A DNA stretch of 64,000 bases. It comes from an uncultured Gammaproteobacteria bacterium. GTDB taxonomy: Bacteria; Patescibacteriota; Patescibacteriia; UBA2196; GWA2-42-15. Within the stretch, counting starts at the first letter, position 1. Every line of letters starts with the position of its first letter. The notes beneath the pieces are model-generated. The model ran no database searches and was not told the origin of the DNA. It saw nothing but the letters and a program-made list of their open reading frames with translations. Location of the stretch: the NCBI GenBank assembly GCA_964573135.1, contig CAZNIO010000001.1:28612-92611 (forward strand), given 5' to 3'. Shown piece after piece: positions 40,934 through 62,236 of the stretch. The position numbers were made by a program, and so were the translations under genes.

Positions 40934-41177
40934 ATATTAAATTTGTTTGTTTTTTGTTTTAGTTATGGACGGGATGCGAAGGCCTGTTTAATGTTGGGTT
41001 ACAATAACCCGATCGAGGAAAAATTTATAGATAATTGCCTCCGCATTCCGTCCTGGTGATCATTAAACATGTCAAACATTAGCACATTTAAAAAATTTGT
41101 CGATAACCCAAAAAACCAAGACACTTCTGCCCTAGCCTCCTATACCTATTAATTAGTTTTAGTAATGTAATATAAAA

Positions 41178-43607: not shown

Positions 43608-43846
43608 AACACCAACTAATTATCTGATAAAACCAACTTTTCCACCAATTGCCAAAAACCAGCCTCATCCATTTGCATAAGGCTATCCTTATCATCAATC
43701 TTCTCTGTTTCTTCAACTAATATTTGCAATAGTTCTTCATTACTCATGCGTTAATAGTAGCACATTAACCAAGTCTGACAATTTATTGGTGGCTTATTAA
43801 CACTGCTACCAAGCAGGATAATTATTGCGCTTAAAATTATAATAAA

Positions 43847-46800
43847 TTATTCAAACAACCCCTTAATATCATCCCATGTCAATTTGGTAAACAAATCCTT
43901 ACTCTCACCAACAAGACGATCAAAAAGAAGTTTCTTTTTTTCTTGAAGTTTTACAATCTTTTCTTCAATGGTTCCTTTGGTTATCAAGCGATAAACATTT
44001 ACCGAATTCTTTTGGCCAATTCGGTGAGTACGATCTATGGCTTGATTTTCAACACTTGGATTCCACCAGGGATCAAAAATAATTACAGTGTCAGCTGAAG
44101 TTAAATTTATGCCTGTTCCACCAGCTTTTAAACTAATTAAAAAAACCTTTAGGTTGTTATTTTCATTAAAATCATCAATCAACTCCTGCCTGTTCCTTGT
44201 TTTACCAGATAAATAGTGATAATTAATCTTCTTTTTATCCAATTCCTTACCCAAAATATCAAGCATTTTCGTGAACTGGCTAAATACTAAAACTTTTCTT
44301 TTGTTTTCAATAATTTCGTCAATTAGCTCCAAAAACATATTTAATTTTGATGATTCGTATTTTGTATAATCATCATCTTTTAACAACAGAACAGGATGAT
44401 TGCAAACCTGTCTTAATTTTGTCAATCCAGCTAAAATATGAATTCGTGATTTATTAAAGCCTTTTGTTTTTACAGTTTCAAAAATTTCTGATTTTACATT
44501 TGCTAAAATTTCCTGATAAAGAATATTCTGTCCTTTGCCTAAATGACAGTGGCTCATTTGCTCCACTTTTGGCGGAAGTTCTTTTAGCACCTCGGATTTT
44601 GTACGGCGCAACATAAAACATTCAATTTTTTTACGCAAATTATCAAGAGCAAGCTTGTTATTGTGTTGCATAATCGGTTTTTCGAACTTCTTGGCAAACA
44701 ACCGATATGATCCCAAAAATCCCGGCATTAAAAAATCAAAAATAGACCAAATTTCTGATACGCTATTCTCAAGCGGCGTGCCAGTCAAAGCCAAACGATA
44801 ATCAGCATTAACTTTTTTTACTACTTGCGCATTCTTTGTGATATGATTTTTAATAAACTGTGCCTCATCTAAAACACAATAATTAAATTTAATTTTTTGT
44901 TTTTCATAAATTGCACTATCTTTTTTTATGGTTGCATAACCCGTAATGATTAAATCATAATTTTTTATTTTTTTTATTATCTTCTCTCGCTCTAATGGAT
45001 TTCCATCAATCACAATCGTTTTTAATTTTGGAACAAACTTTTCTGCTTCATTCTGCCAATTATAAAGCAATGTTTTTGGGCAAATGACAATTGACGGATT
45101 GCCCTTAACTTTTTCTTTTTCCAATAAAACCAAGGCCTGCAAAGTTTTACCAAGACCCATATCATCAGCCAAAATTCCGGCAAATCTATATTTGCGCAAA
45201 AAATAAAGCCAGTCAACTCCCTCCTTCTGATAATCACGCATAATTCTGTCAAGCTTTGCGGGCAACTTAATTTTTTTAACCGACTTGCCGTTTTGTGCTT
45301 CTTTTATAAAATTATTAAAACTTTTCTGTACCTTGGCATTATAATATTCAGATTTTGTAAAAACATTTTCAAGTTCCGGTGCATGGTATAATTTACCTTC
45401 AAATCCACCCTTTTCCCGTGCGTAAAAACTTTCAAGCATTAAAACAAACCTCTCCAGCTCTTCTAAATTTGTAATTTTAAGCATCCGTCCGTCATCCATT
45501 TTTATAAATTCTTTTTTATCCTCAACATATTTTCTCAAGTCTTCCAGCCTAATTTTTTCGTCCCCACAATAGCAACTAACATCAAAACCAAGCCAATCAT
45601 TTTCAGCATTCAAGTCCACATCAAAATCAGCCTTAAAATTTGCTACAGTAAAACTAAATTTATCACCAATGAATTCAATTTTATAATTTTTCTTATTAGC
45701 GAATTTTTCCAAATTGTCCCAATGCTTTGTAAAATATTTGAATATCTCTTTTTCTCCTTCCAGCTTACACTCAACTCTTTTTTTAAATCCATAATCTTTG
45801 TGAAAAAAATAAAAATGCTTATAAATCTCTATTTCTTTTTTCTCATCCACCAATCCATAACTAATATTCTTTTTACTTATGCCAATAACATATTTATCCA
45901 ATCCAGTCCTGCTAAAAGTATCCATACCCATATTGCGGTAACGGTTGACTGACTGACCCACATTTATTTTTTTAAACCCATAATCAACGCCTGCCTGAAT
46001 TTCCAACAAATCTTTTTTACTATCATAATCCACCACTACACAAGGTTTTGCTTCTGTAAATTCTTCAATTTCAAAATTTTGCGTTAAATCAGTTTGAAAA
46101 TCAAAACATTTATGACAATCTTCAATAATTTTATTTAATTCAAGAATCTCTTCCTGCTCAAGCATTGTTTTAAAATATCTTTCATTTCCAAAATGATAAC
46201 CCGTTCTAATTAAATCTATGCGTGACAATATTTTAACCAATGGATTAGTCAACTGATAAAAACCGATAGATTTGTCTTCAATCTTTATAAAGCCATCGCT
46301 GTAAAATAAAAATACCAATGGATCAACTTTTTTGTACTTGTCATCAAGTTCAAAAACAAATTCCTTCTTCAGTCTTTCGTTAAACTCATATTTTACATCC
46401 TCCAATTTTAACAAAATTTTAATTTTGTTGTCATCGGCTACCGGAGAAAATGTCAACAAATTATCAGCAGTGTGCCTGTTCCAATATATTTTCAACTTTG
46501 AATTTCGCAAAATATTAAATAATTTTTTATAATCAATATCGCCGTGATAAACAAAAGATAATTTTCGTAAAAACTTAAACAATTCTTTATGTGGCCCATC
46601 CAAATCATATTGCCTGAGCATCACGCTGGGATCCGTCTCGGATCCGCTATTTTTTTTCACTCGAATATCGGAAAGAGTATTTTTCCCATATCCATCTTCT
46701 AAAATAACATAATAGCTATCCGGGTTAAATCGTTTCTTTTTTATTGGGCTACATTGCGATGTCTCTAAACCATTACGAACATCCACCCCTTTGGCGGCCA

Positions 46801-47374
46801 AAGCTTTGATTAATCCATCTACGACCCCGTCAGGCGCATCTCCAATATCAAGCATACTTTTAAATTCATCCAAAAGTTCTTCTTTGGTTCTATTCTGTCT
46901 ATAATCATCTATTTCTTCAAACTCGCCTTCAACAATATCATCATCAAATTTAACTTTTCTCAATACTTTATCTCCTCCGTAATTTTCAGCTTTAACTTGG
47001 CTATTAATCCAATGAATCAAATCATTTCTTATTGTAGCTCTTCTTAAAACAGAATTATCCATAAACTCTATATAAAAATCTATAAACTCCAATCCAACAG
47101 CTGCGATATGCTTGCAAGCGTCGCCATAAGGACAATCACAATCCATTTTTCTAAAACTATTTTTTTTAAAATCAAAAAACAGACTAGTTGAATAATCATC
47201 ACTGCCTGCAACTTCACTGCGAATCTCAATTTCACTGTCAATCTCGGATGGAAAAACTTTTAAACTCAAAACATTGCCTGAATGATAATATCCGACTCCG
47301 CGACTAAATATATGAGATTCAAAATTTAATTTTAAATTGTTTTTTAACGACTTTTCACTAATTATATGAAACAT
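43847..47374 (-). CDS. SNF2-family helicase with an N-terminal SWIM zinc finger
   Basis: SWIM: CDCPYGDACKHIAAVGL. SNF2 ATPase motifs: GLGKT (motif I), DEAQFIKN (motif II), LTGTPLENS, and the helicase-C GGTGINLTSADTVIIFDPWWNP...QAIDRTHRIGQ. 1175 aa. Confidence 0.8.
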   Translation of the reverse strand: MFHIISEKSLKNNLKLNFESHIFSRGVGYYHSGNVLSLKVFPSEIDSEIEIRSEVAGSDDYSTSLFFDFKKNSFRKMDCDCPYGDACKHIAAVGLEFIDFYIEFMDNSVLRRATIRNDLIHWINSQVKAENYGGDKVLRKVKFDDDIVEGEFEEIDDYRQNRTKEELLDEFKSMLDIGDAPDGVVDGLIKALAAKGVDVRNGLETSQCSPIKKKRFNPDSYYVILEDGYGKNTLSDIRVKKNSGSETDPSVMLRQYDLDGPHKELFKFLRKLSFVYHGDIDYKKLFNILRNSKLKIYWNRHTADNLLTFSPVADDNKIKILLKLEDVKYEFNERLKKEFVFELDDKYKKVDPLVFLFYSDGFIKIEDKSIGFYQLTNPLVKILSRIDLIRTGYHFGNERYFKTMLEQEEILELNKIIEDCHKCFDFQTDLTQNFEIEEFTEAKPCVVVDYDSKKDLLEIQAGVDYGFKKINVGQSVNRYRNMGMDTFSRTGLDKYVIGISKKNISYGLVDEKKEIEIYKHFYFFHKDYGFKKRVECKLEGEKEIFKYFTKHWDNLEKFANKKNYKIEFIGDKFSFTVANFKADFDVDLNAENDWLGFDVSCYCGDEKIRLEDLRKYVEDKKEFIKMDDGRMLKITNLEELERFVLMLESFYAREKGGFEGKLYHAPELENVFTKSEYYNAKVQKSFNNFIKEAQNGKSVKKIKLPAKLDRIMRDYQKEGVDWLYFLRKYRFAGILADDMGLGKTLQALVLLEKEKVKGNPSIVICPKTLLYNWQNEAEKFVPKLKTIVIDGNPLEREKIIKKIKNYDLIITGYATIKKDSAIYEKQKIKFNYCVLDEAQFIKNHITKNAQVVKKVNADYRLALTGTPLENSVSEIWSIFDFLMPGFLGSYRLFAKKFEKPIMQHNNKLALDNLRKKIECFMLRRTKSEVLKELPPKVEQMSHCHLGKGQNILYQEILANVKSEIFETVKTKGFNKSRIHILAGLTKLRQVCNHPVLLLKDDDYTKYESSKLNMFLELIDEIIENKRKVLVFSQFTKMLDILGKELDKKKINYHYLSGKTRNRQELIDDFNENNNLKVFLISLKAGGTGINLTSADTVIIFDPWWNPSVENQAIDRTHRIGQKNSVNVYRLITKGTIEEKIVKLQEKKKLLFDRLVGESKDLFTKLTWDDIKGLFE

Positions 47375-47416
47375 TGTATCTGCTAGACAAGTCTATAAAT
47401 TAAGATTGTGCTAGGC

Positions 47417-48649
47417 TTATATATAACGATAATCTATATACTTAATTAAATTATCCTGATAATTAAAATCCAAGTTAACAACCATAGTTTTTTTAATATT
47501 GCCCTCTCTCTCAATAAAATTTTGTAAAATCCTAGTGTCAATTGGCTTAATAAGCTTTTTGTATTTAGCTTCCACTAATATAATTTTTGCTTTTTCTTCA
47601 ATAATAAAATCAATTTCTGTTTTATTAATAGTACGATAAAAAAATATTTTATTTTTTGCTTTATTCTTTAACTCCAAAAAAACAAAATTCTCAAATATAC
47701 TACCTGCGTCTTGCCTGCTTGTCAAATCCAAAAAATTTCCTAAAATGGCATTGCGAATTCCTAAGTCAAAAAAATAGATTTTAGGCATTTTGGTGACTTG
47801 CGCCCTTATGTTTTTTCTAAAAGGCAGAACTTTGTCTAAAACAAAAGTGAATTCTAAAAGATCTAGATATTTTTCCGTGTCTCTGCGCGAAATTCCGATT
47901 GTATTGCTTAATTCATTAACATTTAATAAATTTCCGATCTGAGAAGCTAAAAGTTTCATCAAACCGTTAAAATGAGCAATATTTTCAATTTTACCAATGG
48001 CCCTGATATCTTTATTAATATAAGTTCCAACATATTCATCCAACATTTTTTCCTTTAACGTTTTATTTTTTTGCAAAGCTATTGCAGGCATTCCCCCGTA
48101 AACCAAATATTCACTTAAATTATTGTCAAAATTTCTTCTGATATCCAGCGGCAAATCTTGCTTTTTAAAATAATTTAAATAAGGAAAATTTTTAAAAATC
48201 AAAAATTCTTCAAAATCCAAAGGATTAACTGAAAATGAAACCTTGCGTCCGGCTAAAGAATCCTGAAACTTTGCTTTTAATTCCAAGCTAGACGATCCTG
48301 TAGTAATAATCTTTATTTTCCCGGCGTACTTATCGTAAAGGTGTTTTAAAAAATTAGACGGGTTGTCTAAATACTGAATTTCATCTATAAGAAAAAAACT
48401 TTTTTCCTTTGGCTTAATAACATATCTGAAAATATTTTCAGGATCATCATTCAAGGTGTCTAACACTTTCATTTCTTCCAGATTAAGATAAAAAATTTGT
48501 TCTTTTTTAATTTTTTTACGGATCAGTTCTTCCTCTATTAATTTCAAAAGGGATGTTTTGCCAACTTGCCTGGGGCCGTTTAAAATAATGATTTCTTTTT
48601 CAAAAAGCCAATTTTTAAGTTCTTTTATTATTTTTCGAGGATAAAGCAT
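47417..48649 (-). CDS. AAA-type ATPase, DUF4143 family
   Basis: Walker A ILNGPRQVGKTSLLK, Walker B FLIDEIQY, then a DUF4143-like C-terminal region. 410 aa. Confidence 0.65.
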   Translation of the reverse strand: MLYPRKIIKELKNWLFEKEIIILNGPRQVGKTSLLKLIEEELIRKKIKKEQIFYLNLEEMKVLDTLNDDPENIFRYVIKPKEKSFFLIDEIQYLDNPSNFLKHLYDKYAGKIKIITTGSSSLELKAKFQDSLAGRKVSFSVNPLDFEEFLIFKNFPYLNYFKKQDLPLDIRRNFDNNLSEYLVYGGMPAIALQKNKTLKEKMLDEYVGTYINKDIRAIGKIENIAHFNGLMKLLASQIGNLLNVNELSNTIGISRRDTEKYLDLLEFTFVLDKVLPFRKNIRAQVTKMPKIYFFDLGIRNAILGNFLDLTSRQDAGSIFENFVFLELKNKAKNKIFFYRTINKTEIDFIIEEKAKIILVEAKYKKLIKPIDTRILQNFIEREGNIKKTMVVNLDFNYQDNLIKYIDYRYI

Positions 48650-48947
48650 ATTTTTATAGTTTAATCTATTAGAATAAAATGTTAAAACTTATACAATAAT
48701 TTTAACACTTTATGTTAAAATTATCAATATCTTCTAAAAATAATTATCACTCGGCTATTCCAATAATCCAAATCCCTGCTTTCGCTCATATTAAAATACC
48801 AGCCAAGTCCCAAAAATTAGGCTAAAACTAGCAAACTCCATATTCCCGCTGATCGCTGGCTCAGTGGTCTCATCAGAGCCACAAAGCCAATAAAACAAGA
48901 TTAATAAATCCATAAATTCGTATAAGCTCCTTATAATTTACCGTCAG

Positions 48948-49029
48948 CAAAAACAAAACCACCCCTTTTCTCAAATGATCTTTTCGTAAAGATCAGCTAA
49001 GAAAATTGGAGTGGTTCTGGTGTTTTTTT
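48948..49029. repeat. Repeat element copy 2 (same 29-bp core and terminator-like hairpin as 40855-40933)
   Basis: See copy 1. AAAACCACCCC...GGAGTGGTT pairing followed by TTTTTTT. Confidence 0.7.
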
Positions 49030-49432
49030 ATGTTTGTACATTTCGTCTTCTTAAAGACGAAGGAACCGAGAATTTTTTTATTTTTATATTAATAACGAAA
49101 CGCGGCACCAAATACCGAATTGCTTACAGCCACGTCTACACTAGCCGCGCTCCGTTATTTTCGATTATATAGTAGCCAAAGCGGCATCATCTGGGCATTG
49201 TCTCAAACAGATACGGGAGGGTATATATGTGAGACAAAGGATACATAAGATGATGCCAACTTCGGCAAATTTCGCGAGCGTGAGGGCTATCCATTACTGT
49301 TCAACGAGGTCTTAACCGCGCCCTTTCTAATTCAAGACCAACCACATGGCAAAACAAGGGCTCCTCACGCTCACATTTCATCTACGGCAACATTACCAGA
49401 TTCTTAAAAAATGTCAATAGCCACGTAACAGC

Positions 49433-49458
49433 CAAAAAGCCCCGTCATTGACGGGGCT
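49433..49458 (-). terminator. Rho-independent terminator downstream of the 1526-aa gene
   Basis: Minus-strand hairpin AGCCCCGUCAAUGACGGGGCU followed by UUUUU. It lies 25 nt past the stop codon. Confidence 0.65.
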
Positions 49459-49482
49459 CTAACATTAATTAGCTAATATTAG

Positions 49483-52400
49483 CTAAAAACACTTACACCA
49501 ATATATTAAATACTCAAGTACAAAGACCAATACACTTACAGCCACAATACTTAATATCAATAAATTAAATGCTACCTTGTCTTTCTTGGTTAATCCTAAT
49601 ATAAAGGCCAAGGCGCACAAGGCGTATATAATAATCACTCCTACCCAGCCCATCGGGCTAAATCCCTGGCAAAATATTAAGGTAATAACTGGAGCCAAGG
49701 TAGCGAGTACTGCCACGCTTGTCCTCCTGGCTACATCCGAAGTATCTGCCATTAGCCAATGCATTGCGAATAAGGTTCCAAAATATGCCAGCAATACTAA
49801 AGCCAAAGGCAAAGCCGATAAATTACCAATTAAGAATAAAATTAGAAATATTACTACCATGCCCAGTATACCTGGCCACCACCAAATCCAACTACCCTTA
49901 AATTGAAATTTATCATTTTCTTCATTTTCTTTTGGCTTATCAAATTTACTGTCTGTCTCTTCACCTGGATCAAATGCTCCACCTTCTTTATCATCTTCAC
50001 CAGATGCTAGGAAATAGTAATAAACAGCCAATACTATAACATGTACTAAAGCTACTAGCAACCACATCCACCATAAAGATCCATCGTCACACTTAGTTGT
50101 CCCTAAAACTTCTCCATTTTTATCATCATCGCCGGCTACCTCTCCATTCTCTTTCTCAGTTTCATCAGTTGTGGCAGCTGAAGAAACCTCAATTTCTTCT
50201 GGAGTGCCACCTGTTGGAGTACCGCCAGTCGTTCCTGTTCCACCCACAGCTCCTCCTTCTTCTCCGCCACCTGTACCGCCTTCTTCTTCCTCAGGCCCAC
50301 CGCCCACTCCTGCAAAAAAGATATCTTCAAGCATTGAACCCATGTCATTGGCTTGATCAAAGACTACTGATACTTGAGTTATTGCTTCACCTTCATTTTC
50401 TGCTAATACTTCAATTGCAAAAATTTGGTCACTGCCCACACTTAGGGCGCTCATATCCCAAGTAGCAACTTGGGTGCTGGTCGTATAGGAAGTCCAAGCA
50501 GGATTAGCCCCTACAAAACTCAACTTATCTTCAGGTAAATCTACGGTCAATATTTCATTTGTTAATATTATATTTCCCGTATTCGAGACGACGATTGTTT
50601 CGGTGTATACTTCACCTACCTCTTTAATTAAATCATATGTTAAATCCAATTCCACATCAGGCCGTGAGGTAAAGCTACCTCCACCGCCTCCGCTACTCTT
50701 TTCTTCTAAAATACATGAAGAATTACATTGATACCCATCTGGAGCACTACCATCACATTCTTCCTCTCCATTAACTATATTATCTCCACAATAACCAGAA
50801 TAGTAGTTATAGAAATCAATAGTAGTTGTGGGTACTTCTTCTACTAAGTTAAATGCATAATATAAGGGATCTATAGGATAAGTCTGTGACCAGCCATTCT
50901 GGGCTGTCTCAGACACCTTATAATCCCCGCTAACTAGCTCCGTAAACCTATAACAACCAAAATATTCAGATTGCTCATCACTCTCAGTACTCTGCCGATC
51001 CACTTCTACAAAGCTGCTCTCTTCCTCTCTCTCCAAAACCATTTCAAATCCACCTACCTTTTCTTCTCCATCATCCAATACCCCATTATTATTCACATCA
51101 TCATATTTACAGCCAAATATATATCCTTCTGGCCCATCGTAGTAGTTTATAAAATTAGTTGTGGTGGCTGTACCAGATATAAGGGTAAATGAACTTGAGG
51201 TTGCCGATAATGCAGTCCAATATGTTGGACTATCTTCAATTACCGTATAATCTCCAGGAATTAAACCATTAAATTCATAATATCCATCCACATCTGTTGT
51301 AGTTGTGGCCACTGGTATTGAATCCGAGCTAGAATTAAATAAATTAATCAACCAATCAGATTTTAATACCCTATCACCCGCAGTTTCTGAATCTCCATCC
51401 ATATCCTCATGCTTATACCCTGAAATGGTTGAATACTCTGTGTTATAATATGAAACTTCTACAGTTTGATCCGTTGCCACATTAAATGAATGACCCTGCA
51501 ATTCATCATTCAATAAATACCAATTATCTCTTACCTCTTCAGTAACTGTATGATTACCCGGTACTACGCTAAATAGAGCATAACCATTAACTGTTGTAGT
51601 TGCTGTAGAGCTAGTCGCTCCAGAATCAACCGTAAAACTCCAATCCGAAACTGGAAAAATATCACTATTTGGATTCTCAGTTGAACCATCCATATCTTTA
51701 TATTTCCAAATCTTAAGATATCCGGGTAAAATAGGGGGTCCGGTTCCACAACTGGCGTCAGCTACGTTTTGAGTTGTATCTGTACAATATGTATGTTCAG
51801 TTAAATTATTTCTTGTTTGCTCTCGCTGTGTTGAAGACACGCATGCTCCATCTACCCAGGGGGAATAATCACAATTACAATCTGTATCTGGCTCTTCTTG
51901 ATTATATACTCCGCCACATGTCGGATCATTCCATGAATAATATACTGTTGCATATCCGTCTGACACACACATTCGATCATCTTCACTTTCAACGCAATCA
52001 ATACCGCCACAGGCGTCATTTACCGCCCCAGGTGTACCTGAATCTCCTGCGCCATAAGTAGATGACGATTCACACCAATTGGATCCAACGTTATTATCCA
52101 AATTAGGATTTGAAAGAATCATTGATTTACCAGGATATTGAATCGGGAATCCGCTATTGTATTCTACTCTGTCAATTTCCACGCCATTGCAGGTCAAAAC
52201 TACCTCATCAGCTAAATTGCCAAGCACAAAGCTAGTATATTTATAATCACCAGATACCCCACCATTACTTCCAGTATCGTCGTCTCTGACAAGAACTATA
52301 TACCCGTCCTGAGAAATCAATAAAGATGAACCAATAATATGTAAATTTCCATTGTTATCACTTATCTCACACCCTTGTAAATCTAAAACCTTATCCGAAT

Positions 52401-54063
52401 TATTATATAATTCAAACCATTCACCATAAATATCTGAAACCTTGCCAGGATTTTGCATTATTTCATTAATAACTATATCCCCAGGCTGGATACCTTCTGG
52501 GGCATCTGTTTCATTATTATCTGTTCCACTATCACACCCTGGATCATCTGAATAATCAATTTTACCATCTATGTCATTGTCAACTCCGTCATTACATTGA
52601 TAAGTAATCACACACTGGCTAGAACATCCATCTCCGTCATCCAAATTCCCATCATCACATTCTTCTCCAGCCTCCAAAGTGCTATTACCGCATACTGGAT
52701 CAGATATTTCAATGATACATTGTGCTGAGCATCCGTCATCATCATCTGTATTTCCATCATCGCAGTCTTCCCCATCTTCTTGAATATTATTTCCACATTC
52801 TGGATCAGCTATTTCTACCACACACTGGCTAGAACATCCATCTCCGTCATCCAAATTGCCATCATCGCATTCTTCTCCTGCATCATCAATACTATTTCCG
52901 CATTCTGGATAATAGTTAGCAAAATCCTGATCTGCTACATCATTATGTCCTGCAATAGTCACTGCATAGCTTTCGCTTTGAGGATAAGTCTGCGCCCAAC
53001 CTAGTTGTGGGGTTTCAGATATTGTATAATCCCCGTCTTCCAAACCAGAAAAAGTGTAACATCCGTCAATAGTTGTTTGCGTAGTAGTTGCTACTCCATT
53101 ATTCAAATTTATTTCCCAATCTGATATCGTCAGCTCATCCTGATCAATTTCTCCGTTATTATTCACATCATTGTATTTACACCCGGAAACTGAACCATAC
53201 TCACAAATTTGTTGTGAAATATCTTCATAAATACCAGTCAAGTCATCACCGCTAGGTGCATGATGATATGTAGCTCCAGTAGTATTGGCAATATTTTGTA
53301 ACATTCCTTCATTAATATCACCGTTACTTCCCAGCCCAATCGTAAATATCTTATAACCCAAATTAGCTGCTTCTTCTGCTTTGCTTTCAGCATAAGTCAC
53401 ATCAGCCGGATACTCATCATAGCCATAACCATTTGGCTTGTTGGCCTTGCCATCAGTCAAAAGAATCATCACTTTAGTCGCCTGAGGATTGGCTCTTTCA
53501 GAAACTAATTCCCCAATACCAAAATTTATTGCATCACCAATATTAGTCGCACCGCCTGACACCAAACTGTCAACTGCACTCTTGGTTGCACTATGATTAC
53601 CGCTCAACGCCTGGTTAAGTAAAGCAAAATCACTAAAAGACACCAAAGCAGACTGATCGTTCACGCCCATATTATTTACAAAGGCTTTAGCTGCGTCTTT
53701 AGCTGCATTAATTTTACTCTGAGAGGCTGGGGTATAGCTATAACCAGTACAAGGTAAACCACTTTCCTGAGTAGCACACCACTCCTCACTTACACCTTCT
53801 TGTACATAGGGAACACAAGAGGGGGGCTCATACTCGTACCACTCGCATCTGCTTGGTGCTTCCCCGTCCGTCATACTCCCTGATCTATCCATAATCAAAA
53901 CCACATCAACTGCCACTTCACACAAATCATCTACTGGTTGCACCGCCGATGCCGTTGGCACAGGCACAGACGCAACGCCAGTAAAAAAAGAACCAAACAC
54001 CAACATAAAAATAGAAAAACAAGTGACGAGCTTGGATATCCTTTTTTTGGCTAATAAATACAT
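49483..54063 (-). CDS. Giant multi-domain surface protein with a C-terminal multi-TM anchor. Domains: VWA, Myxococcus-type Cys-rich repeats, lamin-tail domain and SdrD-B-like repeats.
   Basis: Signal-like N-terminus. VWA with a MIDAS motif (DVVLIMDRSGSM...T..G). Three tandem CGNxxxExGEECDDGNxDDGDGCSxQC repeats. LTD (GDIVINEIMQNPGKVSDIYGEWFELYN). Several G.Y.F.GL..GDY.V.E SdrD-B-like modules. A Gly-rich segment, then 4-5 C-terminal TM helices. 1526 aa. Confidence 0.7.
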   Translation of the reverse strand: MYLLAKKRISKLVTCFSIFMLVFGSFFTGVASVPVPTASAVQPVDDLCEVAVDVVLIMDRSGSMTDGEAPSRCEWYEYEPPSCVPYVQEGVSEEWCATQESGLPCTGYSYTPASQSKINAAKDAAKAFVNNMGVNDQSALVSFSDFALLNQALSGNHSATKSAVDSLVSGGATNIGDAINFGIGELVSERANPQATKVMILLTDGKANKPNGYGYDEYPADVTYAESKAEEAANLGYKIFTIGLGSNGDINEGMLQNIANTTGATYHHAPSGDDLTGIYEDISQQICEYGSVSGCKYNDVNNNGEIDQDELTISDWEINLNNGVATTTQTTIDGCYTFSGLEDGDYTISETPQLGWAQTYPQSESYAVTIAGHNDVADQDFANYYPECGNSIDDAGEECDDGNLDDGDGCSSQCVVEIADPECGNNIQEDGEDCDDGNTDDDDGCSAQCIIEISDPVCGNSTLEAGEECDDGNLDDGDGCSSQCVITYQCNDGVDNDIDGKIDYSDDPGCDSGTDNNETDAPEGIQPGDIVINEIMQNPGKVSDIYGEWFELYNNSDKVLDLQGCEISDNNGNLHIIGSSLLISQDGYIVLVRDDDTGSNGGVSGDYKYTSFVLGNLADEVVLTCNGVEIDRVEYNSGFPIQYPGKSMILSNPNLDNNVGSNWCESSSTYGAGDSGTPGAVNDACGGIDCVESEDDRMCVSDGYATVYYSWNDPTCGGVYNQEEPDTDCNCDYSPWVDGACVSSTQREQTRNNLTEHTYCTDTTQNVADASCGTGPPILPGYLKIWKYKDMDGSTENPNSDIFPVSDWSFTVDSGATSSTATTTVNGYALFSVVPGNHTVTEEVRDNWYLLNDELQGHSFNVATDQTVEVSYYNTEYSTISGYKHEDMDGDSETAGDRVLKSDWLINLFNSSSDSIPVATTTTDVDGYYEFNGLIPGDYTVIEDSPTYWTALSATSSSFTLISGTATTTNFINYYDGPEGYIFGCKYDDVNNNGVLDDGEEKVGGFEMVLEREEESSFVEVDRQSTESDEQSEYFGCYRFTELVSGDYKVSETAQNGWSQTYPIDPLYYAFNLVEEVPTTTIDFYNYYSGYCGDNIVNGEEECDGSAPDGYQCNSSCILEEKSSGGGGGSFTSRPDVELDLTYDLIKEVGEVYTETIVVSNTGNIILTNEILTVDLPEDKLSFVGANPAWTSYTTSTQVATWDMSALSVGSDQIFAIEVLAENEGEAITQVSVVFDQANDMGSMLEDIFFAGVGGGPEEEEGGTGGGEEGGAVGGTGTTGGTPTGGTPEEIEVSSAATTDETEKENGEVAGDDDKNGEVLGTTKCDDGSLWWMWLLVALVHVIVLAVYYYFLASGEDDKEGGAFDPGEETDSKFDKPKENEENDKFQFKGSWIWWWPGILGMVVIFLILFLIGNLSALPLALVLLAYFGTLFAMHWLMADTSDVARRTSVAVLATLAPVITLIFCQGFSPMGWVGVIIIYALCALAFILGLTKKDKVAFNLLILSIVAVSVLVFVLEYLIYWCKCF

Positions 54064-54116: not shown

Positions 54117-55079
54117 TTAATTTGCACTTTGAACTTTTTTCTTTGGATTGTTTTTTTGTATATATACTCTTACAATCCTAATAATTATCACTAAAATACT
54201 CACGATAACAGCTAAAGCTATTAAATAAACCCAACTATTCATATCGCTTGCTCCTTTCACAATACCGCCCCAAAAACCCGTATTATTAAGTGTGAAAAAA
54301 AACTGATCGCGATGCTTCTCTTCTCCATTAAGAGTAATAATAGCCTCAACCCTATATTTACCCTGTTTTAAATCATCTGTATTACGCACAACCTCAATCA
54401 CCTTCGTTGCACGTGGGCGAACAGGTGCTTCCATTTCAGGATAAGGATAAATAACATTAAAAATTTCCTTTTCAGAAGAATCAAATATTTTAACCTGTGC
54501 ATTTGGCCTAATGGCAATATTCCCATTATTTGTGTAAATCATCTTTATTTTTAAAGGTGTATTCTTCTTAACAACATATTTTTCGGGCATTACTGTCGCT
54601 TTAAAATCAACGATCTCTTCATCAGTTACAACTATTTTAACTGGTCGATCAAATTTTTGGGCAATACCCACAACAAATTCCCCCTCATCTCCCTCACTAG
54701 AAGATGGGGAAATAAGAGCTACTAAAGATCCATTATATTCACCATTCGGCGTATCATCAGGTATTCTTATAAATACCCTTGCCTTAGCCCACTCCTCGGA
54801 CAAAGCAGTAATTTCAGTTATTAAGCCCTCTATATCACCTGACTGCTTATAAGAAACCCAATCAGCTATATCACCTTCCGCACTGAGCTTAAAAACAATC
54901 TCGGAATCACTTGTATTAACCAAACTCAATAATTCCTCAACTTCCTGCCCACGCATAGCGTCTTCTATCTCAATTGATTGAGAAATAATGCCAGAAGCAG
55001 ACACAAATAAAGGCATTATTAAACTGAATACACCAAGTATTACAATAGCTTTACCTATATTTTTCTTATTTATATTCAT
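54117..55079 (-). CDS. Hypothetical exported protein with a C-terminal TM anchor
   Basis: 320 aa with a signal peptide and one C-terminal TM. It sits immediately upstream of the giant gene on the same strand. Confidence 0.45.
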   Translation of the reverse strand: MNINKKNIGKAIVILGVFSLIMPLFVSASGIISQSIEIEDAMRGQEVEELLSLVNTSDSEIVFKLSAEGDIADWVSYKQSGDIEGLITEITALSEEWAKARVFIRIPDDTPNGEYNGSLVALISPSSSEGDEGEFVVGIAQKFDRPVKIVVTDEEIVDFKATVMPEKYVVKKNTPLKIKMIYTNNGNIAIRPNAQVKIFDSSEKEIFNVIYPYPEMEAPVRPRATKVIEVVRNTDDLKQGKYRVEAIITLNGEEKHRDQFFFTLNNTGFWGGIVKGASDMNSWVYLIALAVIVSILVIIIRIVRVYIQKNNPKKKVQSAN

Positions 55080-55214: not shown

Positions 55215-56459
55215 CTACTTACTGCATGTTCTAAATTCTGCTTTTTGGCTTGAAAGAGTCATTTCACCAGAACCAGCAAGATTAGGCCACTGTTTAATCA
55301 TGATTTGGAAATCAATTTTTTCATCTTCAGATAGATCTAAAATATCTTCCAAAGTGGCTGTTTCATAAGGGGTATATTCCCACCAATCTGCCTCTTCGTG
55401 CCCAAGTCTGGCACGATAAGCAACATTATATGACAAATCAGACTGCTGGCCGAATTCCATATCATCCTGGTATACATCTATGTAAAGACGCACATTACCA
55501 AGATTTCTAATGGTTGGCATGTCAACTGTTGCCATATCTTGATCGCCATGAGGACCATACCATTGATTCAAGTTATCAACAATTCCATAATTAACACCAA
55601 CTTGATCAAAATCAACTTCAAAAGACTTTAATTCCAAATAAGTCATTAAGTTTGTGACTTCATCTTTTAAAGTATTGTCGTTTTGAGCCTTAACATGAAT
55701 TGTATATTCACCTGCTGGATCCTCATAATAAAGGCTTCTTGTCCCACAGTAAACATATGCTTGTTCCTGAGGTAGTGTAACTCCGCAGATTTCATTATAC
55801 TCATCATTGGTATAAAAATGGGTTAGATTACCACTATGATAATCTTTAATATTAGCAGAATTAACACTGCCGTCAGCTCTAGTACCACAGAATAATTCTA
55901 GTCCATCTTCTTTTGTCAACTGAGTCAATTCAAGTTCGTTACCGAAAACGTCCTGAAAACAACCTGTGTCTGAAGGATCATAACCAGTTGAAGGTACATC
56001 CTGAGGTGTTAATACGCTTGTTGCGGGGCCACCATCGATTTGATCAGCTATAGTGGAATGAGGATGAAAGCCATATCCTATTGGATAATGAACTTCGTTA
56101 ACCCAAACACCAGCCAAATCTTGATTGCCACTACTGTTAGTTACACCATCTGTAACGATGGCACAAACTGTAAAAGGAACGCGACTTTCAAATAATCCGC
56201 TAGGACTTAGTTGAGTGAACGGATTAGTGCTATCATCTCTATCTGTATCATCCATATATGCAGGTGCCACTGATCCATTATCAAAACCTATCGCACTTTT
56301 TGTTTCCCATTTAGCCAAAATAATAGGAGCTGAGCCGCCTGTACCACCTTGCACAACGCTAGTCGGAACGGTAGTTGGAGTACCAGCTGCGACAGCAGGA
56401 ACACCTACCATACTAAATGTCAAAGCAAAAAGCAATGACATTATAAATAATTTTTTCAT
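55215..56459 (-). CDS. Hypothetical secreted protein
   Basis: 414 aa with a signal peptide (MKKLFIMSLLFALTFSMVGVPAVAAG). No TM elsewhere. Confidence 0.45.
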   Translation of the reverse strand: MKKLFIMSLLFALTFSMVGVPAVAAGTPTTVPTSVVQGGTGGSAPIILAKWETKSAIGFDNGSVAPAYMDDTDRDDSTNPFTQLSPSGLFESRVPFTVCAIVTDGVTNSSGNQDLAGVWVNEVHYPIGYGFHPHSTIADQIDGGPATSVLTPQDVPSTGYDPSDTGCFQDVFGNELELTQLTKEDGLELFCGTRADGSVNSANIKDYHSGNLTHFYTNDEYNEICGVTLPQEQAYVYCGTRSLYYEDPAGEYTIHVKAQNDNTLKDEVTNLMTYLELKSFEVDFDQVGVNYGIVDNLNQWYGPHGDQDMATVDMPTIRNLGNVRLYIDVYQDDMEFGQQSDLSYNVAYRARLGHEEADWWEYTPYETATLEDILDLSEDEKIDFQIMIKQWPNLAGSGEMTLSSQKAEFRTCSK

Positions 56460-56865
56460 AAATTTTATATTTACTAATAATATAATATATTAAAGTATCT
56501 CTCAAAGAGCGAAACGACCTACCAATTCGTAAAGAAACGAACTGACAGGTGAGATCTCTCTAATCTTTGAAAAGATAGCTAATATATTCTTTCTAAAGAC
56601 TGAATTCGCCAGATCTTGGAATACAGTCTTAAATAGCCCCGACCTTTCATTTTCCCGCATATGCGGGATAAATGGCTTAGGATAACAAATATATTCATAT
56701 TTCCTATCCCAAGCCATTAAAAAACACCCTTAGCTAAAATAATCTGGATAATTCATATATTATTGAATTATTCACATTATTTTTTCTAAAGGCGTTTATG
56801 TCTATATATTGCAGACGTTTTGTACCTATAATGAATTATTTAGTTGTAATTATTCAGTAAGTTAA

Positions 56866-58589: not shown

Positions 58590-59066
58590 TTACCTACTAA
58601 TTATCTGAATAATATCATCCTCATCATATTGATTTAATCCCACCCCATTTGGTCCATACGACCCCACTACCGCCCTATCAACCCCGTCTACCTCATAATC
58701 ACTATCAAAAAAATAGTTATTTCCCCATGGATCCGCAGTTAAAATTTGGATATATGGACCTCTCCAATTGGGAAAACTGCCATCAGTTCTTTTTATACCC
58801 GCCACAGGCAAAAACAAATTTACAATCTCGTTATTATCACACGACCCACTACATGCCACATATGGCGTTTGATGACCCGGCCATTGCCTAGAATCTAATG
58901 CCAAAGCATCAATTGCTTTAGCAATTGTCGCTACATCAGCTTCAGCCTTTGTTTTTTTGGCATATTTTTTAGCATAATGACTACCACCCATGACTATGGT
59001 TGCTAAAAGAGCAATAATACCAATGACTACAAGTATTTCAATTAGAGTAAAACCTTTTTTCTCCAT
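58590..59066 (-). CDS. Type IV pilin / pseudopilin (prepilin-type N-terminal methylation domain)
   Basis: MEKKGFTLIEILVVIGIIALLATIV: class III signal, G-F-T-L-I-E. 158 aa. Confidence 0.8.
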   Translation of the reverse strand: MEKKGFTLIEILVVIGIIALLATIVMGGSHYAKKYAKKTKAEADVATIAKAIDALALDSRQWPGHQTPYVACSGSCDNNEIVNLFLPVAGIKRTDGSFPNWRGPYIQILTADPWGNNYFFDSDYEVDGVDRAVVGSYGPNGVGLNQYDEDDIIQIISR

Positions 59067-59067
59067 A

Positions 59068-59994
59068 TTATAATATCTTAACAGCCTCTCCAGCTACACT
59101 TTCTAAAAAGTGTAGTTTTAAAGCCAACATTAGAAGTAAAAGCAAAAGTACAAAAATTAAATGCAATATAATAGGTTTATGCTGTACTTTTATACGAATA
59201 AATATTGTTAAAATTAAATTTATTATCATAAACACTGCCAATACCAATAGAATCTTTTCTGTATAAAAAACAATCTTACTCACCTTGCTCCTGTATTTAG
59301 TATCACGAAAAGTTACCTCAATCTCTTCTCCGCCTCCAACAAGCGTCACTCCAGCCACCTGTGTTGCCTGCTCACCAGCCGATGGCCCAAACTCAGCTAC
59401 ATTTGAAGTCACAAAACTCTTGCCAAAATGCTGTACTACGACTGTAGTTTGCTTGCCTTCTATTTCGCCCACCATCACAGCCACGCCAATCTCATCATAG
59501 TTATTATTCAACATATTTTCTCTATGTGTTGGGCTCAAAAGCCAGGCTTCAATAGCTTCTTCAGCATCAGAAAAATTCATGGCTAAATTTTCACCCGCAT
59601 ATGTGTAGTTATATCCTGCTTGGCGAAACCATTCCCAAGGATTAACTCCTTGGGGAGAATCATGGTCAAAATATCCATACTTAACCATGTCTTTCGCCTT
59701 CATCATAGCTGACTCATCTAAAATACTATTATGTGAAAGAATTGATGATCCTGCCTCTATCCTCGCCTTATTAGTCAGCTCAACTATTCGGTTGACTGTA
59801 ACAGTAGAAAATTCAGCCACATTCGGCGCTACAATCAAAAAAGAGCATAAAACAAAAATCTTTATGCCCAAAATTAAAGCGCTATAGAAATGTAGAGCTT
59901 TATGCCGCACCAAATGAGGCTTGTGATCATTATGCTCACTTGGAATTATATAATGGTGCAGTCTTTTTTTTGGTGGTTTTGCTATAAACATCAA
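59068..59994 (-). CDS. CAP-domain (SCP/PR-1/YkwD-like) protein with N- and C-terminal membrane segments
   Basis: GYNYTYAGENLA...AWLLSPTHRENML...YDEIGVAV matches bacterial YkwD-type CAP domains. There is 1 nt between it and the pilin gene. Confidence 0.65.
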   Translation of the reverse strand: MMFIAKPPKKRLHHYIIPSEHNDHKPHLVRHKALHFYSALILGIKIFVLCSFLIVAPNVAEFSTVTVNRIVELTNKARIEAGSSILSHNSILDESAMMKAKDMVKYGYFDHDSPQGVNPWEWFRQAGYNYTYAGENLAMNFSDAEEAIEAWLLSPTHRENMLNNNYDEIGVAVMVGEIEGKQTTVVVQHFGKSFVTSNVAEFGPSAGEQATQVAGVTLVGGGEEIEVTFRDTKYRSKVSKIVFYTEKILLVLAVFMIINLILTIFIRIKVQHKPIILHLIFVLLLLLLMLALKLHFLESVAGEAVKIL

Positions 59995-60190: not shown

Positions 60191-60358
60191 TTAAGTAATC
60201 TTCGCTCTTGATCCTTTTAAAAACTCTTTACTAAACTGATGGATATCAAACTTTTTATGTCGCTTCATATAACTTTTTGTAAAATCATTTCTAAATCGAC
60301 GTATTTTATCCACTACGCTTCTGTTCTCATTTACATTTTGTATATTATTTTCCTTCAT
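60191..60358 (-). CDS. Small basic ORF (55 aa) overlapping the 3' end of the PIN gene; possible partner (antitoxin?) of the PIN protein
   Basis: Hand translation: MKENNIQNVNENRSVVDKIRRFRNDFTKSYMKRHKKFDIHQFSKEFLKGSRAKIT. Not in the ORF track because it is under 60 aa. Its start lies 11 nt upstream of the PIN stop. Confidence 0.25.
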   Translation of the reverse strand: MKENNIQNVNENRSVVDKIRRFRNDFTKSYMKRHKKFDIHQFSKEFLKGSRAKIT

Positions 60359-60827
60359 ATGATTTTATTATTTCTTCAGGTGTCGTCAACTGAGGAATAC
60401 TTAAATTATTTTTAACATTAAATTCCGTTAATTTCTTCCTTCTGCCGGGATTGGCCATATGCGTAATATTCCAAGTCACTAAATAATCTATCTTATGAAT
60501 GGTCGCACAAGCGATATGCAAGGCATCAATCGGATATGACACTGGAATTATTCCAGCCTTTAAATACTCGTCTGCCAAATTCTCAACCATCTCATTAATT
60601 TTTAAAATTTCAAACTCATTAATTAACTTAATTATATTGCCTCTTTTAATAATATCTTGCGTTCTTTTTACTTCCTGAAGTGTAGCTTGAGAAATAAAAC
60701 TAAAAAAATTCTTAAGGTGGTCTTCCCAAAGTAACCTTGTAATTGCCGTCTGCTCTGGCGCAGTCGTATCATAAAAACTACTTGGCACCGACGTATCAAA
60801 ATAAATTTTTAACGTTACTCTGCTCAT
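60345..60827 (-). CDS. PIN-domain protein (VapC-like)
   Basis: IYFDTSV (first acidic residue) and DALHIACA (conserved D in a helix) fit PIN spacing. 160 aa. Confidence 0.5.
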   Translation of the reverse strand: MSRVTLKIYFDTSVPSSFYDTTAPEQTAITRLLWEDHLKNFFSFISQATLQEVKRTQDIIKRGNIIKLINEFEILKINEMVENLADEYLKAGIIPVSYPIDALHIACATIHKIDYLVTWNITHMANPGRRKKLTEFNVKNNLSIPQLTTPEEIIKSYEGK

Positions 60828-61043
60828 TAATAATATTATACCGTATATTATTCAATTTGTCAAAAATCCGAAATTTCTATCAAATCAAACACTTATCAAC
60901 ACATTCTAAATTTCCCTGCCCTTGACAACCAAGAAGCACCACCTTAAAATTAATCTATAGCTAAAATTAGCTAACTTATTACATAGTTTTAGCTAACTAC
61001 AGGGAAATTAACTTCCCGCCTTTTTAGCACTCACGTAAATTTT

Positions 61044-61397
61044 ATGGATAAACAAGAAAACCCTCAAATATTAAACCCAGAAAGTGAACAAAAAGTAAGA
61101 AAAGAAGGCGAGTTTAAGCAAAAAGCAAATCAGATGAGAGAAGGCTACCGCCACCGAGCATTTATACTTATGCTTGAATTAGCTGTCATCATCGCTATCC
61201 CTGCTTTTGTTGCCCTTATCATTGGTAAAAAAATTGATGCTCGCCTGCAAGGCGATTTTCAATATACCTTGCCTCTTCTAGCTCTTGCTTTCATTCTCTC
61301 TTGGGCCATTATTATATTAAAATACGTTAAATTTAATAAACACATTAAAAAGGTTGATGATCAAATTAGACAAGAAAAAGAGAAATTAGATAAATAA
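61044..61397 (+). CDS. AtpZ/AtpI-like small membrane protein preceding atpB
   Basis: 117 aa with two TM segments. By position it matches atpI/atpZ. Confidence 0.4.
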   Translation: MDKQENPQILNPESEQKVRKEGEFKQKANQMREGYRHRAFILMLELAVIIAIPAFVALIIGKKIDARLQGDFQYTLPLLALAFILSWAIIILKYVKFNKHIKKVDDQIRQEKEKLDK

Positions 61398-61400
61398 ATT

Positions 61401-62198: not shown

Positions 62199-62236
62199 AA
62201 GTCTAAAAAGCATTTACTAATTAATTATATAAAAAT

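Follow-up and report, generated by a model that had tools for sequence, protein, structure and literature searches.

VWA-type tip adhesins of the sortase-assembled pili of Gram-positive bacteria (RrgA, EbpA, GBS PilA/GBS104 and SpaC) present a MIDAS head, with insertions beside the MIDAS, on CnaB/SpaA-type beta-sandwich domains. Such a design, with a conserved MIDAS at the far end of a stalk, characterises ligand-binding adhesins, as in these pilus proteins and in integrin I domains. In EbpA, the MIDAS is required for adhesion (PMC3419518). Integrin I-domain receptors, which combine a MIDAS-VWA head with a beta-sandwich and Cys-rich stalk and a membrane anchor, are single-pass heterodimers with cytoplasmic signalling tails. 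The WxL/Csc clusters of Firmicutes encode a WxL-interacting protein (WxLIP; DUF916, DUF3324 and a TM helix) alongside small and large WxL proteins, and its role in these clusters has been described (PMC10599100). Nearest to the protein described here are Patescibacterial paralogues annotated as “VWA domain-containing”, “SdrD B-like domain-containing” or “lamin tail domain-containing protein”, for example P0003 (Candidatus Kuenenbacteria), P0018, P0048 and P0100. These are its family, sharing its N-terminal VWA domain, Cys insert included, and its repertoire of stalk domains. They differ at the C-terminus, where most have a sortase-type LAxTG signal or a Cys/Trp tail with a single TM helix, and the fused six-helix module reported below is confined to a minority.

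Results

The locus lies in a 64-kb window (the whole stretch of DNA analysed), in which a bacterial RNase P RNA was found; the named homologues are all from Patescibacteria. The 1526-aa ORF reported in an earlier, sequence-only reading is real, and is the last gene (C-D) of a minus-strand cassette (Table 1). Genes A and B lie upstream on the same strand, with intergenic gaps of 135 and 53 nt, and are kept in synteny in other genomes. Beyond the window, nine loci (eight of them different) have B immediately 5' of the gene for a VWA protein, and in six further loci A immediately precedes B. The two neighbours had been called exported proteins, which their signal peptides bear out, and the cluster is conserved across loci. 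As to the proposed co-transcription, the common strand, the short gaps and the synteny stand, and from these we infer that A, B and C-D are probably cotranscribed. Promoter and terminator scans, taken as a whole, did not rise above chance; for the promoter-like site in Table 1, the scan was compared with shuffled sequence.

Table 1. Coordinates of the cassette genes and of the features of C-D.
Feature	Positions	Strand	Residues (aa)	Basis or remark
Promoter-like site TTGAGA-17-TATTAT	56477..56505	-		just 5' of gene A; weak
Gene A	55215..56459	-	414	secreted; signal peptide, six invariant Cys, no membrane anchor
Gene B	54117..55079	-	320	bitopic; signal peptide, two beta-sandwich domains, C-terminal TM helix
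Gene C-D	49483..54063	-	1526	adhesin fused to its own membrane dock (apparent); ORF and Pfam/NCBIfam domain matches
Signal peptide	53944..54063	-	1-40	KKR, hydrophobic core, ASA|VQ; hydropathy; probable cleavage site, placed by eye from the sequence
VWA domain, complete MIDAS	53209..53916	-	about 50-285	Pfam VWA
Four-Cys insert, 48 aa	53725-53868	-	66-113	directly after DxSxS motif
SdrD_B / prealbumin-like domain 1	52909..53196	-	about 290-385	Pfam SdrD_B 3.3e-10 (fragment)
Three tandem 35-aa Cys-rich acidic repeats	52603..52902	-		TIGR02232 / DUF4215; 105-nt period
CNDGxDND...C motif	52534-52596	-		right after the tandem Cys-rich repeats
Lamin tail domain (LTD)	52156..52488	-	526-636	Pfam 2.7e-16 full-length, 2.2e-18 fragment
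Cys-rich region	51694..52146	-	640-790	family-less
Three SpaA/SdrD_B-type beta-sandwich domains	50794..51696	-	about 790-1090	stalk
Fourth Cys-rich repeat	50704..50790	-	1092-1120	TIGR02232
DUF11-type beta-sandwich, “pre-anchor”	50344..50622	-	1148-1240	Pfam DUF11 2.4e-7
Gly/Glu/Thr-rich linker	50098-50301	-		follows the DUF11 domain
Adhesin tail: Cys1325, Trp-rich LWWMW, TM1	50002..50091	-	1331-1354 (TM1)	TM1 boundaries from the AF2 model
Predicted cytoplasmic TM1-TM2 loop	49891..50001	-	1355-1391	fusion joint
D-equivalent five-TM bundle, TM2-TM6	49486..49890	-	1392-1526	AF2 helices

The VWA domain and its MIDAS, both named earlier, were confirmed. The Pfam match is above the curated cut-off (E 1.3e-17 with the full-length protein, 1.2e-19 in the fragment search), and the MIDAS is complete, comprising D59, S61 and S63 (D-x-S-x-S), T173 and D204. 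The first four residues are kept in 84 of 85 homologues, a count to which D204, read from the query sequence only, does not belong. Of the 85 homologues, 75 have a Cys-containing insert of 50-60 aa at the VWA domain. The identification of C-D as an exported multi-domain MIDAS-VWA surface protein is supported.

For the stalk, the LTD and SdrD_B-like modules were likewise recovered by Pfam above the curated cut-offs; in the full-length search SdrD_B covered three stretches (E 2.9e-24) and SpaA, also above its cut-off, four. Individual stalk fragments matched SdrD_B at 3.6e-8 and 1.6e-9, and the fragment search of the first unit (aa 790-885) gave no match. The Pfam search of aa 640-790 returned nothing at E<=0.05. 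The DUF11 match, again above the cut-off, surfaced when the protein was searched fragment by fragment, and a DUF11-type domain likewise stands ahead of the membrane module in P0124, P0127 and P0128. The Cys-rich repeats are of the TIGR02232 type, as had been proposed (NCBIfam, four stretches, E 1.4e-24; Pfam DUF4215, three stretches; both above the curated cut-offs), although they number four rather than three, with three in tandem and one at aa 1092. TRF recovered the expected 105-nt period (52609-52910, 2.9 copies). The units, described earlier as near-identical, have pairwise nucleotide identities of 72%, 74% and 57%, with an identical 39-nt run between units 1 and 3. The number of repeats varies among distant homologues (tandem runs of 1 to 6); at 57-74% identity, the suggestion that near-identical units could drive copy-number variation is unsupported, as is any variation between strains.

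The polytopic C-terminal anchor without a sortase signal held up, in that TM helices were modelled and no C-terminal LPXTG motif was found in the 1526-aa protein. The helices number six, not four or five, by hydropathy, by the AF2 model of the module (mean pLDDT 80, pTM 0.75, helices >90 pLDDT) and by the K+R count of the loops (8 inside versus 0 outside). The TM1-TM2 loop is acidic, Lys-rich and variable (pLDDT <50), and aligns with the hydrophilic N-termini of stand-alone five-TM proteins. The five-TM bundle bears Cys1465, Cys1523 and Cys1525 on its outer face. A profile of the module, searched against 1.84 billion proteins, retrieved 54 representatives at E<=1e-3 (best E 1e-74), with the match at the extreme C-terminus in nearly all of them. 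The conserved positions are C, W, P and Y, and the motif is kept down to 18-30% identity; W, P, Y and L positions are invariant, and besides Cys no polar residue is. It belongs to no Pfam family, and at the level of fold it has no specific relative.

Two independent relatives have the same module in split form, with the Cys/Trp motif and TM1 at the tail of the adhesin and five TM helices encoded by an adjacent gene of 147-163 aa. At L011, the P0096 tail covers profile positions 20-65 (E 2e-8), and its 147-aa neighbour covers 73-224 (E 1e-19). At L013, the corresponding ranges are 4-66 for the P0055 tail (E 5e-12) and 63-224 for the 163-aa gene that begins 6 nt further on (E 1e-24). Adhesin tails of this type (P0096, P0083 and P0055) stay within positions 4-71 of the profile, and the stand-alone five-TM homologues (135-186 aa) start with Met. 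The split arrangement was confirmed at the DNA level in L011 and L013 only; a 146-aa gene lies 19 nt downstream of P0004, and L012 has an adhesin with no adjacent five-TM gene. Judged by these sequence comparisons, the membrane anchor of C-D joins, by gene fusion, the tail helix of the adhesin itself to a five-helix protein that is encoded separately in relatives.

Six conserved extracytoplasmic Cys sites (s1-s6) are all found on the predicted outer face of the module. Of 28 modules, 27 have an even number of conserved Cys, and sites are lost in pairs: s2 with s3 in at least three lineages, s4 with s5 in at least two, and s1 with s6 in one. The exceptions are P0123, with an odd count, and P0032, whose pattern misfits simple pairing. 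On the basis of this covariation among 28 related sequences, up to three disulfides are predicted (s1-s6, s2-s3 and s4-s5), two of which would tie the flank of TM1 to the five-helix bundle. In the window protein, the predicted disulfides are C1325-C1525 and C1465-C1523.

Homologues of A (E 1e-41 to 1e-64) sit directly upstream of B in L006-L009, and others occur in L010, L012 and L013. They form an orphan family of 41 members from Patescibacteria, in none of which a Pfam domain was found. A sequence search of the PDB gave no match for A, which shows no recognisable relationship either with TasA-like proteins or with B. For B, the best structural match is a Firmicute WxLIP, with a fold match only marginally above that of generic tandem beta-sandwich proteins and marginal sequence similarity (E 0.044); the biofilm scaffold RbmA is also among the fold matches. 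Pfam found neither DUF916 nor DUF3324 in B, nor any WxL domain in A or C. The likeness to WxL clusters extends to arrangement: B has the architecture of a WxLIP (signal peptide, two Ig-like domains and a C-terminal TM helix), and its gene, as in those clusters, adjoins the genes of a smaller secreted protein and of a large surface protein with several domains (PMC10599100). The large protein here differs in that it is anchored in the membrane, whereas a WxL domain would attach it to peptidoglycan. Neither the WxLIP likeness of B nor the fusion in the anchor had featured in the sequence-only reading.

Discussion

We favour, with rather better than even confidence, the interpretation of C-D as a host- or surface-binding adhesin with an Ig-like stalk and a fused, disulfide-stapled membrane dock, belonging to an A-B-C cassette. 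After Sec export and cleavage of the signal peptide, the VWA MIDAS, flanked by the family-specific Cys-rich insert, would be displayed at the far end of a stalk (SdrD_B/SpaA domains, acidic disulfide-rich repeats, LTD and DUF11) that spaces it away from the cell. The membrane domain would derive from two evolutionary parts, the tail with the Cys/Trp motif and TM1 and then the five-helix bundle “D”. Disulfides on the outer face would staple TM1 to the bundle, and the resulting force-resistant anchor would take the role that sortase has in paralogues ending in LAxTG signals. If WxL clusters are a guide, B probably keeps A, and possibly C as well, on the cell surface in a complex. A role in host or surface attachment is reasonable, and the ligand may be the surface of a host cell; the LTD and VWA domains are also known from non-adhesive extracellular proteins. 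The comparison with pilus tip adhesins has its limits, as the window protein has no LPXTG or pilin motif and possesses the six-helix anchor, as well as the LTD, the TIGR02232 repeats and the DUF11 domain that those adhesins lack. The integrin parallel is a functional analogy only, with homology limited to the VWA fold and no conserved cytoplasmic domain in the window protein. The cluster showed no sortase gene. C-D is a concrete candidate for sortase-free fastening of a host-binding protein to the membrane in ultrasmall CPR/Patescibacteria bacteria.

An unlikely alternative is that C-D is a structural component of an envelope or matrix (an S-layer-like coat, or a cell-cell or biofilm scaffold) that works with TasA-like fibres, and not a host adhesin. 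TasA homologues have been reported in Patescibacteria (PMC9245690). TasA-like Peptidase_M73 genes adjoin the cassette in L005, L006, L008, L011 and L013, SipW-like signal peptidases are present in L005-L008 with a putative 177-aa candidate in L011, and the RbmA match of B points the same way. However, the 64-kb window contains no M73-like or SipW-like ORF, the protein is individually membrane-anchored rather than secreted, and a MIDAS at the stalk tip matches the adhesin architecture. It is quite improbable that the five helices form an enzyme for sorting or processing, comparable in function to exosortase, archaeosortase or rhombosortase, that recognises the tail with the Cys/Trp motif and TM1 as its signal. 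The tail would then be cleaved, or the adhesin moved to another envelope component, and the fused form would be a self-processing precursor. Known sorting enzymes of the exosortase type span the membrane several times and have a catalytic Cys. The CxxC-x-WW-x-W motif with its TM helix resembles a dedicated C-terminal signal and is found on many bundle-less adhesins, and a bundle gene lies immediately 3' of such adhesins. Yet the lack of any invariant polar residue besides Cys speaks against an enzyme, and each Cys site is lost in some members, in pairs, which fits structural disulfides and not a catalytic nucleophile. Covalent fusion of substrate to enzyme in about 28 proteins from several lineages would also be hard to square with turnover.

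The absence of a Pfam family or a specific fold relative would suit a module that is merely a generic hydrophobic anchor with unrelated neighbours. We regard this as highly improbable: the motif positions persist at 18-30% identity, the profile finds its matches, down to 1e-74, almost exclusively at C-termini, fused and split gene forms recur, Cys sites are lost in pairs, and A and B are syntenic on many contigs.

The adhesin reading that we prefer places C-D in a widespread family. The domain combination had been called an unusual mosaic, whereas the same architecture recurs across Patescibacteria (1561 matches at E<=1e-5, including many proteins with VWA, Cys-rich repeat, LTD and SdrD_B). 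In many homologues of this radiation the C-terminus consists of LA[EP]TG/LPxTG, a TM helix and a basic tail, that is, of a sortase-type signal. This runs counter to the earlier proposal that the anchor fits an envelope without canonical anchoring systems; the polytopic anchor appears to be one of several interchangeable anchors, and not a consequence of lacking sortase.

The putative adhesin and its family

The open reading frame on the minus strand exists as called and encodes 1526 residues. Every domain that the sequence-only reading had named in its product was borne out above the curated thresholds of Pfam or NCBIfam, and the VWA and lamin tail (LTD) assignments both stood above the Pfam gathering score. 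The VWA domain (PF00092) reached 65 bits against a cut-off of 23.8 on the full protein and 71.6 bits on a fragment. The LTD (PF00932) scored 60.3 bits against 34.3 and covered profile positions 5-108 of 109, SdrD_B (PF17210) scored 85.8 against 29.7 in three stretches, SpaA (PF17802) 61.4 against 23.1 in four stretches, and the "cysteine-rich acidic repeat" of NCBIfam (TIGR02232) 85.6 against 20.8, again in four stretches. DUF4215 gave 52 bits on a fragment (Pfam), and a DUF11 domain was detected by Pfam when the protein was searched as ten fragments; the Cys-rich region of residues 640-790 was without a Pfam match. The MIDAS (DxSxS, then T, then D) is complete, as D59-x-S61-x-S63, T173 and D204, with D59, S61, S63 and T173 kept in 84/85 aligned homologues and D204 taken from the query sequence alone. 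A Cys-containing insert of 50-60 residues directly after DxSxS, found in 75/85 homologues, is a hallmark of the family. From this architecture alone, the reading of the protein as an adhesin is reasonable.

The tandem Cys-rich units have a period of 105 nt (TRF). They had been described as near-identical, a description that does not fit their pairwise nucleotide identities of only 72%, 74% and 57%. Units 1 and 3 share an identical run of 39 nt despite an overall identity of ~74%, which may reflect gene conversion or a recent duplication.

A homology search with the protein returned 1561 proteins at E<=1e-5, and the named homologues were all from Patescibacteria (Kuenenbacteria, Staskawiczbacteria, Falkowbacteria and Buchananbacteria). 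The set of VWA, DUF4215, LTD and SdrD_B/SpaA is common to many of the best 120 of these 1561. What had been called an unusual mosaic is therefore no oddity: the architecture is common in this radiation, and the protein belongs to a large Patescibacteria family that is already annotated but uncharacterised. A single-protein scan of GTDB genomes returned one locus. The identical protein is carried by a JGI metagenome contig of 162 kb. The window also holds a full-length match to the bacterial class A RNase P RNA (165 bits, E 1.9e-51), which marks it as bacterial.

A six-helix membrane module as anchor

The C-termini of the 120 best homologues (of 1561) took several forms: (i) a sortase-type signal, composed of LA[EP]TG/LPxTG, a TM helix and a basic tail; (ii) one TM helix preceded by a CxxC-x-WW-x-W motif; (iii) a six-TM module, the form of the window protein, in which helix 1 bears the same Cys/Trp motif as form (ii); and (iv) a four-TM variant. 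The combination of LPXTG, TM helix and basic tail was not found at the C-terminus of the window protein, as the sequence-only reading had held, and its sole LPxTG-like string is LPCTG at residue 103, within the VWA insert. The LPXTG-type C-terminal signal is present in homologues P0044, P0058, P0103, P0117 and others. Since close relatives thus use sortase signals, the idea that the polytopic anchor reflects an envelope lacking canonical anchoring is not supported. The four-TM variant was seen at the C-termini of homologues P0035, P0037, P0100 and P0113, where the Cys/Trp motif seems to stand in for the motif that stand-alone five-TM proteins have at the TM2-TM3 turn, which points either to an internal repeat in the module or to fusion at another point.

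Both the sequence and the AF2 model of the module gave six hydrophobic helices, where four to five had been counted previously. The model has a mean pLDDT of 80 and a pTM of 0.75, with the helices above 90. When the ectodomain is placed outside, the inside loops carry 8 Lys/Arg residues and the outside loops 0. In an alignment of ten modules, positions of C, W, P and Y are invariant or nearly so down to 18-30% identity. Pfam scans of these ten modules yielded no family, only scattered sub-threshold matches. Among 1.84 billion representatives, searched exhaustively with the profile, just 54 proteins matched at E<=1e-3, and in these the matched stretch ends at the C-terminus nearly always. The match of the window protein itself to the profile of this alignment (A1; E 2.8e-69, positions 5-224, ending at residue 1525 of 1526) is given by construction, because the query is among the ten profile-building sequences; the family is independently real, as other proteins match the profile down to E 8.8e-74. 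As a rule, the module follows the same DUF11-type domain and a linker rich in Gly, Thr and Glu, and other passengers include TSP1-like repeats (P0122) and DUF11 repeats (P0128). Literature searches returned nothing on this family or module. As judged from these sequences, the anchor is a new element: a rare, undescribed membrane module that is encoded in both fused and split form and whose cysteine covariation points to putative disulfide staples on its outer face.

Fused and split forms

The same profile search returned complete proteins of 135-186 residues, starting with Met, that match only TM2-TM6. At locus L011, the tail of the adhesin P0096 matches profile positions 20-65 (E 2e-8), and a 147-aa gene ~100 nt downstream matches positions 73-224 (E 1e-19). 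At locus L013, which is of a different clade, the tail of the adhesin P0055 matches positions 4-66 (E 5e-12), and a 163-aa gene that begins 6 nt past its stop matches positions 63-224 (E 1e-24). The homologue P0004 has a 146-aa candidate gene 19 nt downstream. The separate occurrence of the TM1 tail and of the five-TM gene (hereafter D) in these relatives indicates that the six-helix anchor of the window protein is a fusion of the adhesin tail with D. By the Rosetta-stone argument, the existence of both forms predicts that TM1 and D interact. This is a natural prediction of a protein-protein interaction that can be checked without cultivating the organism.

Paired loss of cysteines

Of the six Cys-rich columns in the module, all of which face outward in the predicted topology, s1 and s2 immediately precede TM1, s3 falls within the TM2-TM3 turn, s4 lies where TM4 ends, and s5 and s6 form a C-terminal CxC. 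Across 28 modules, the patterns over s1-s6, as counted before a correction to P0124, were CCCCCC in 15, C..CCC in five (the window protein included), CCC..C in three, CCC... in two, and.CCCC., C.CCC. and.CC... in one each. The C-terminus of P0124 had been misaligned, and its pattern is corrected from CCC... to CCC..C. After this correction the Cys count is even in 27/28 modules (binomial p 1e-7, phylogeny ignored). Sites s2 and s3 were lost jointly in at least three lineages, whose mutual identity is no more than 30%, and s4 and s5 in at least two. Such paired loss is what is expected for disulfides s2-s3, s4-s5 and s1-s6, and it argues against a catalytic role of these cysteines. Two of the three predicted bonds would join the TM1 flank to the D bundle. 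The window protein keeps an even set at the conserved sites (C1325, C1465, C1523 and C1525), for which the predicted bonds are C1325-C1525 and C1465-C1523.

The surface cassette

The genes preceding the adhesin gene (C) are those for A, a secreted protein of 414 aa, and B, a surface protein of 320 aa; the window gaps are 135 nt from A to B and 53 nt from B to C. In the related loci L002, L003/L004 and L005, the gene for the VWA protein is immediately preceded by a homologue of B (E about 1e-49), and a B homologue lies likewise directly upstream of the VWA protein in L008, L009, L011, L012 and L013. In L006, L007 (two copies), L008 and L009, the gene immediately preceding B is a homologue of A (E 1e-41 to 1e-64), and A is found upstream of B also in L010, L012 and L013. 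Contigs of equal size recur in the match lists of A, B and C. In the window there is no minus-strand terminator-like site between A, B and C; the promoter and terminator scans as a whole did not rise above shuffled expectation. The guess that C is co-transcribed with the two exported genes is thus supported indirectly, by synteny. As gene order indicates, the module is part of a surface cassette, A-B-C(-D), that is conserved and includes a WxLIP-like partner. The locus offers a clearly delimited set of genes (A, B, C, D) that is widely conserved and centred on a MIDAS adhesin.

A is a member of an orphan Patescibacteria family (41 members, all "hypothetical") with six invariant Cys, and it gave no Pfam match and no PDB sequence match. 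Its reading as a divergent TasA-like protein was rejected (hhalign probability 11%), as was that as a relative of B (4.5%). One family member, P0241 (602 aa, ENA), is fused to LTD and DUF4215, which are passenger domains also in C; such a fusion may point to binding partners common to A and C, or to module swapping between them.

The AF2 model of B (pLDDT 85) has helix 5-25, beta-sandwiches 36-123 and 141-265, and helix 282-310. It shares with WxLIP the signal peptide, the two tandem Ig-like domains and the C-terminal TM helix. B gave no Pfam match to PF06030/PF11797 (DUF916/DUF3324) at E<=0.1, its family profile matched 9i1y at E 0.044 only, and its fold match to WxLIP is only marginally better than those to generic tandem beta-sandwich proteins such as RbmA and PapD-like chaperones. 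WxLIP clusters have WxL-domain proteins alongside, whereas neither A nor C gave a WxL match at E<=0.1, and a cluster with at least two WxL-domain proteins was not found. Given the small fold margins and the missing DUF916/DUF3324 match, we term B WxLIP-like, not a family member. A proposed role of WxLIP is to bind WxL proteins and keep them stable through an inserted beta-hairpin (PMC10599100). By analogy, B may hold A, which lacks an anchor, at the surface, and perhaps C as well, and its resemblance to WxLIP suggests that a Firmicutes surface-complex logic extends to CPR.

A tentative anchoring model

Work on host attachment in Patescibacteria has so far centred on type IV pili. Host-binding mechanisms in this group are largely unknown (PMC12206443). 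We tentatively propose, at somewhat less than an even chance, that the Cys/Trp tail and D constitute an undescribed, sortase-independent anchoring system of Patescibacteria. The C-terminal helix of the surface protein would dock into a small polytopic membrane protein dedicated to it, and a pair of intermolecular disulfides at the outer face would tie the two together covalently. The window gene would be the fused form, and together with A and the WxLIP-like B the system would make up the host-contact complex of these episymbionts. The model is specific and testable for anchoring, and possibly also for host attachment in CPR bacteria.

Genomic surroundings

Positions of features in the window, in the window protein and in related loci
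Feature	Position	Strand	Source
Gene A	window 55215-56459	minus	
Gene B	window 54117-55079	minus	
Adhesin gene (C)	window 49483-54063	minus	
TM1	aa 1331-1354		AF2
TM2	aa 1392-1412		AF2
TM3	aa 1417-1439		AF2
TM4	aa 1444-1464		AF2
TM5	aa 1470-1492		AF2
TM6	aa 1495-1525		AF2
DUF11 domain	aa 1148-1240		Pfam
Tandem Cys-rich units	window 52609-52910		TRF
Repeat units 1 and 3	window 52588-52902		
RNase P RNA	window 35106-35473	minus	
Pilin-like and CAP genes	window 58590-59994	minus	
Possible defence or mobile island	window 39444-48649	minus	
Stretch downstream of adhesin gene	window 48650-49482		
Weak terminator-like hairpin	window 49103-49117		
Weak PIN-domain match and PhD/ParE-type pair	window about 60345-60827 and 63463-64000		L001 Pfam table
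Divergent strand switch	window about 61000-64000		
TasA-like (M73) gene region	L005 1632-5434		
TasA-like (M73) gene region	L006 2137-7007		
TasA-like (M73) gene region	L008 14900-17959		
TasA-like (M73) gene region	L011 750-4549		
TasA-like (M73) gene region	L013 8095-8625		
A-B pair with pilin-like genes	L010 10445-13316		
CAP gene	L007 2496-4148		

Peptidase_M73 (TasA-like) genes lie near the cassette in five related loci (see the table), and SipW-like signal peptidase genes in L005-L008, those of L005, L006 and L008 being of the S24/S26 type. L011 has an unannotated 177-aa gene in the SipW position, and no SipW-like gene was seen beside the cassette of L013. A TasA/SipW fibre operon comprises M73 and SipW-like genes, whereas the window cluster is without both: phmmer gave no M73-like or SipW-like match at E<=1 among all ORFs of at least 60 aa in the whole 64-kb window. 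These genes are thus optional neighbours of the cassette.

Some 2 kb upstream of A, the window encodes a CAP-domain protein and a type IV pilin-like protein of 158 aa with an N-terminal GFTLIEILV. The A-B pair of L010 borders on three pilin-like genes and on a gene of 401 aa that is possibly PilC-like, and in L007 a CAP protein is found upstream. These neighbours raise the possibility of a link between the cassette and pili.

In the 833 nt downstream of the adhesin gene, the only called ORFs are two tiny ones of 40 and 50 aa, and there is a single weak hairpin that resembles a terminator. The stretch beyond, possibly a defence or mobile island, encodes an AAA_14/DUF4143 ATPase (410 aa), a SNF2-family helicase (1175 aa) with an N-terminal Cys/His motif that is possibly SWIM-like, an 809-aa protein with a weak GGDEF match and an AbiEii-like gene. 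Further matches, from the Pfam table precomputed for L001, are a weak one to a PIN domain and a PhD/ParE-type toxin-antitoxin pair near the ATP synthase operon. GC skew is strongly negative (-0.1 to -0.4) over 1-62 kb, where most long ORFs are on the minus strand, and is ~0 or positive after 62 kb, where the plus strand carries the F-type ATP synthase operon. A strand switch of this divergent kind resembles a replication origin region.
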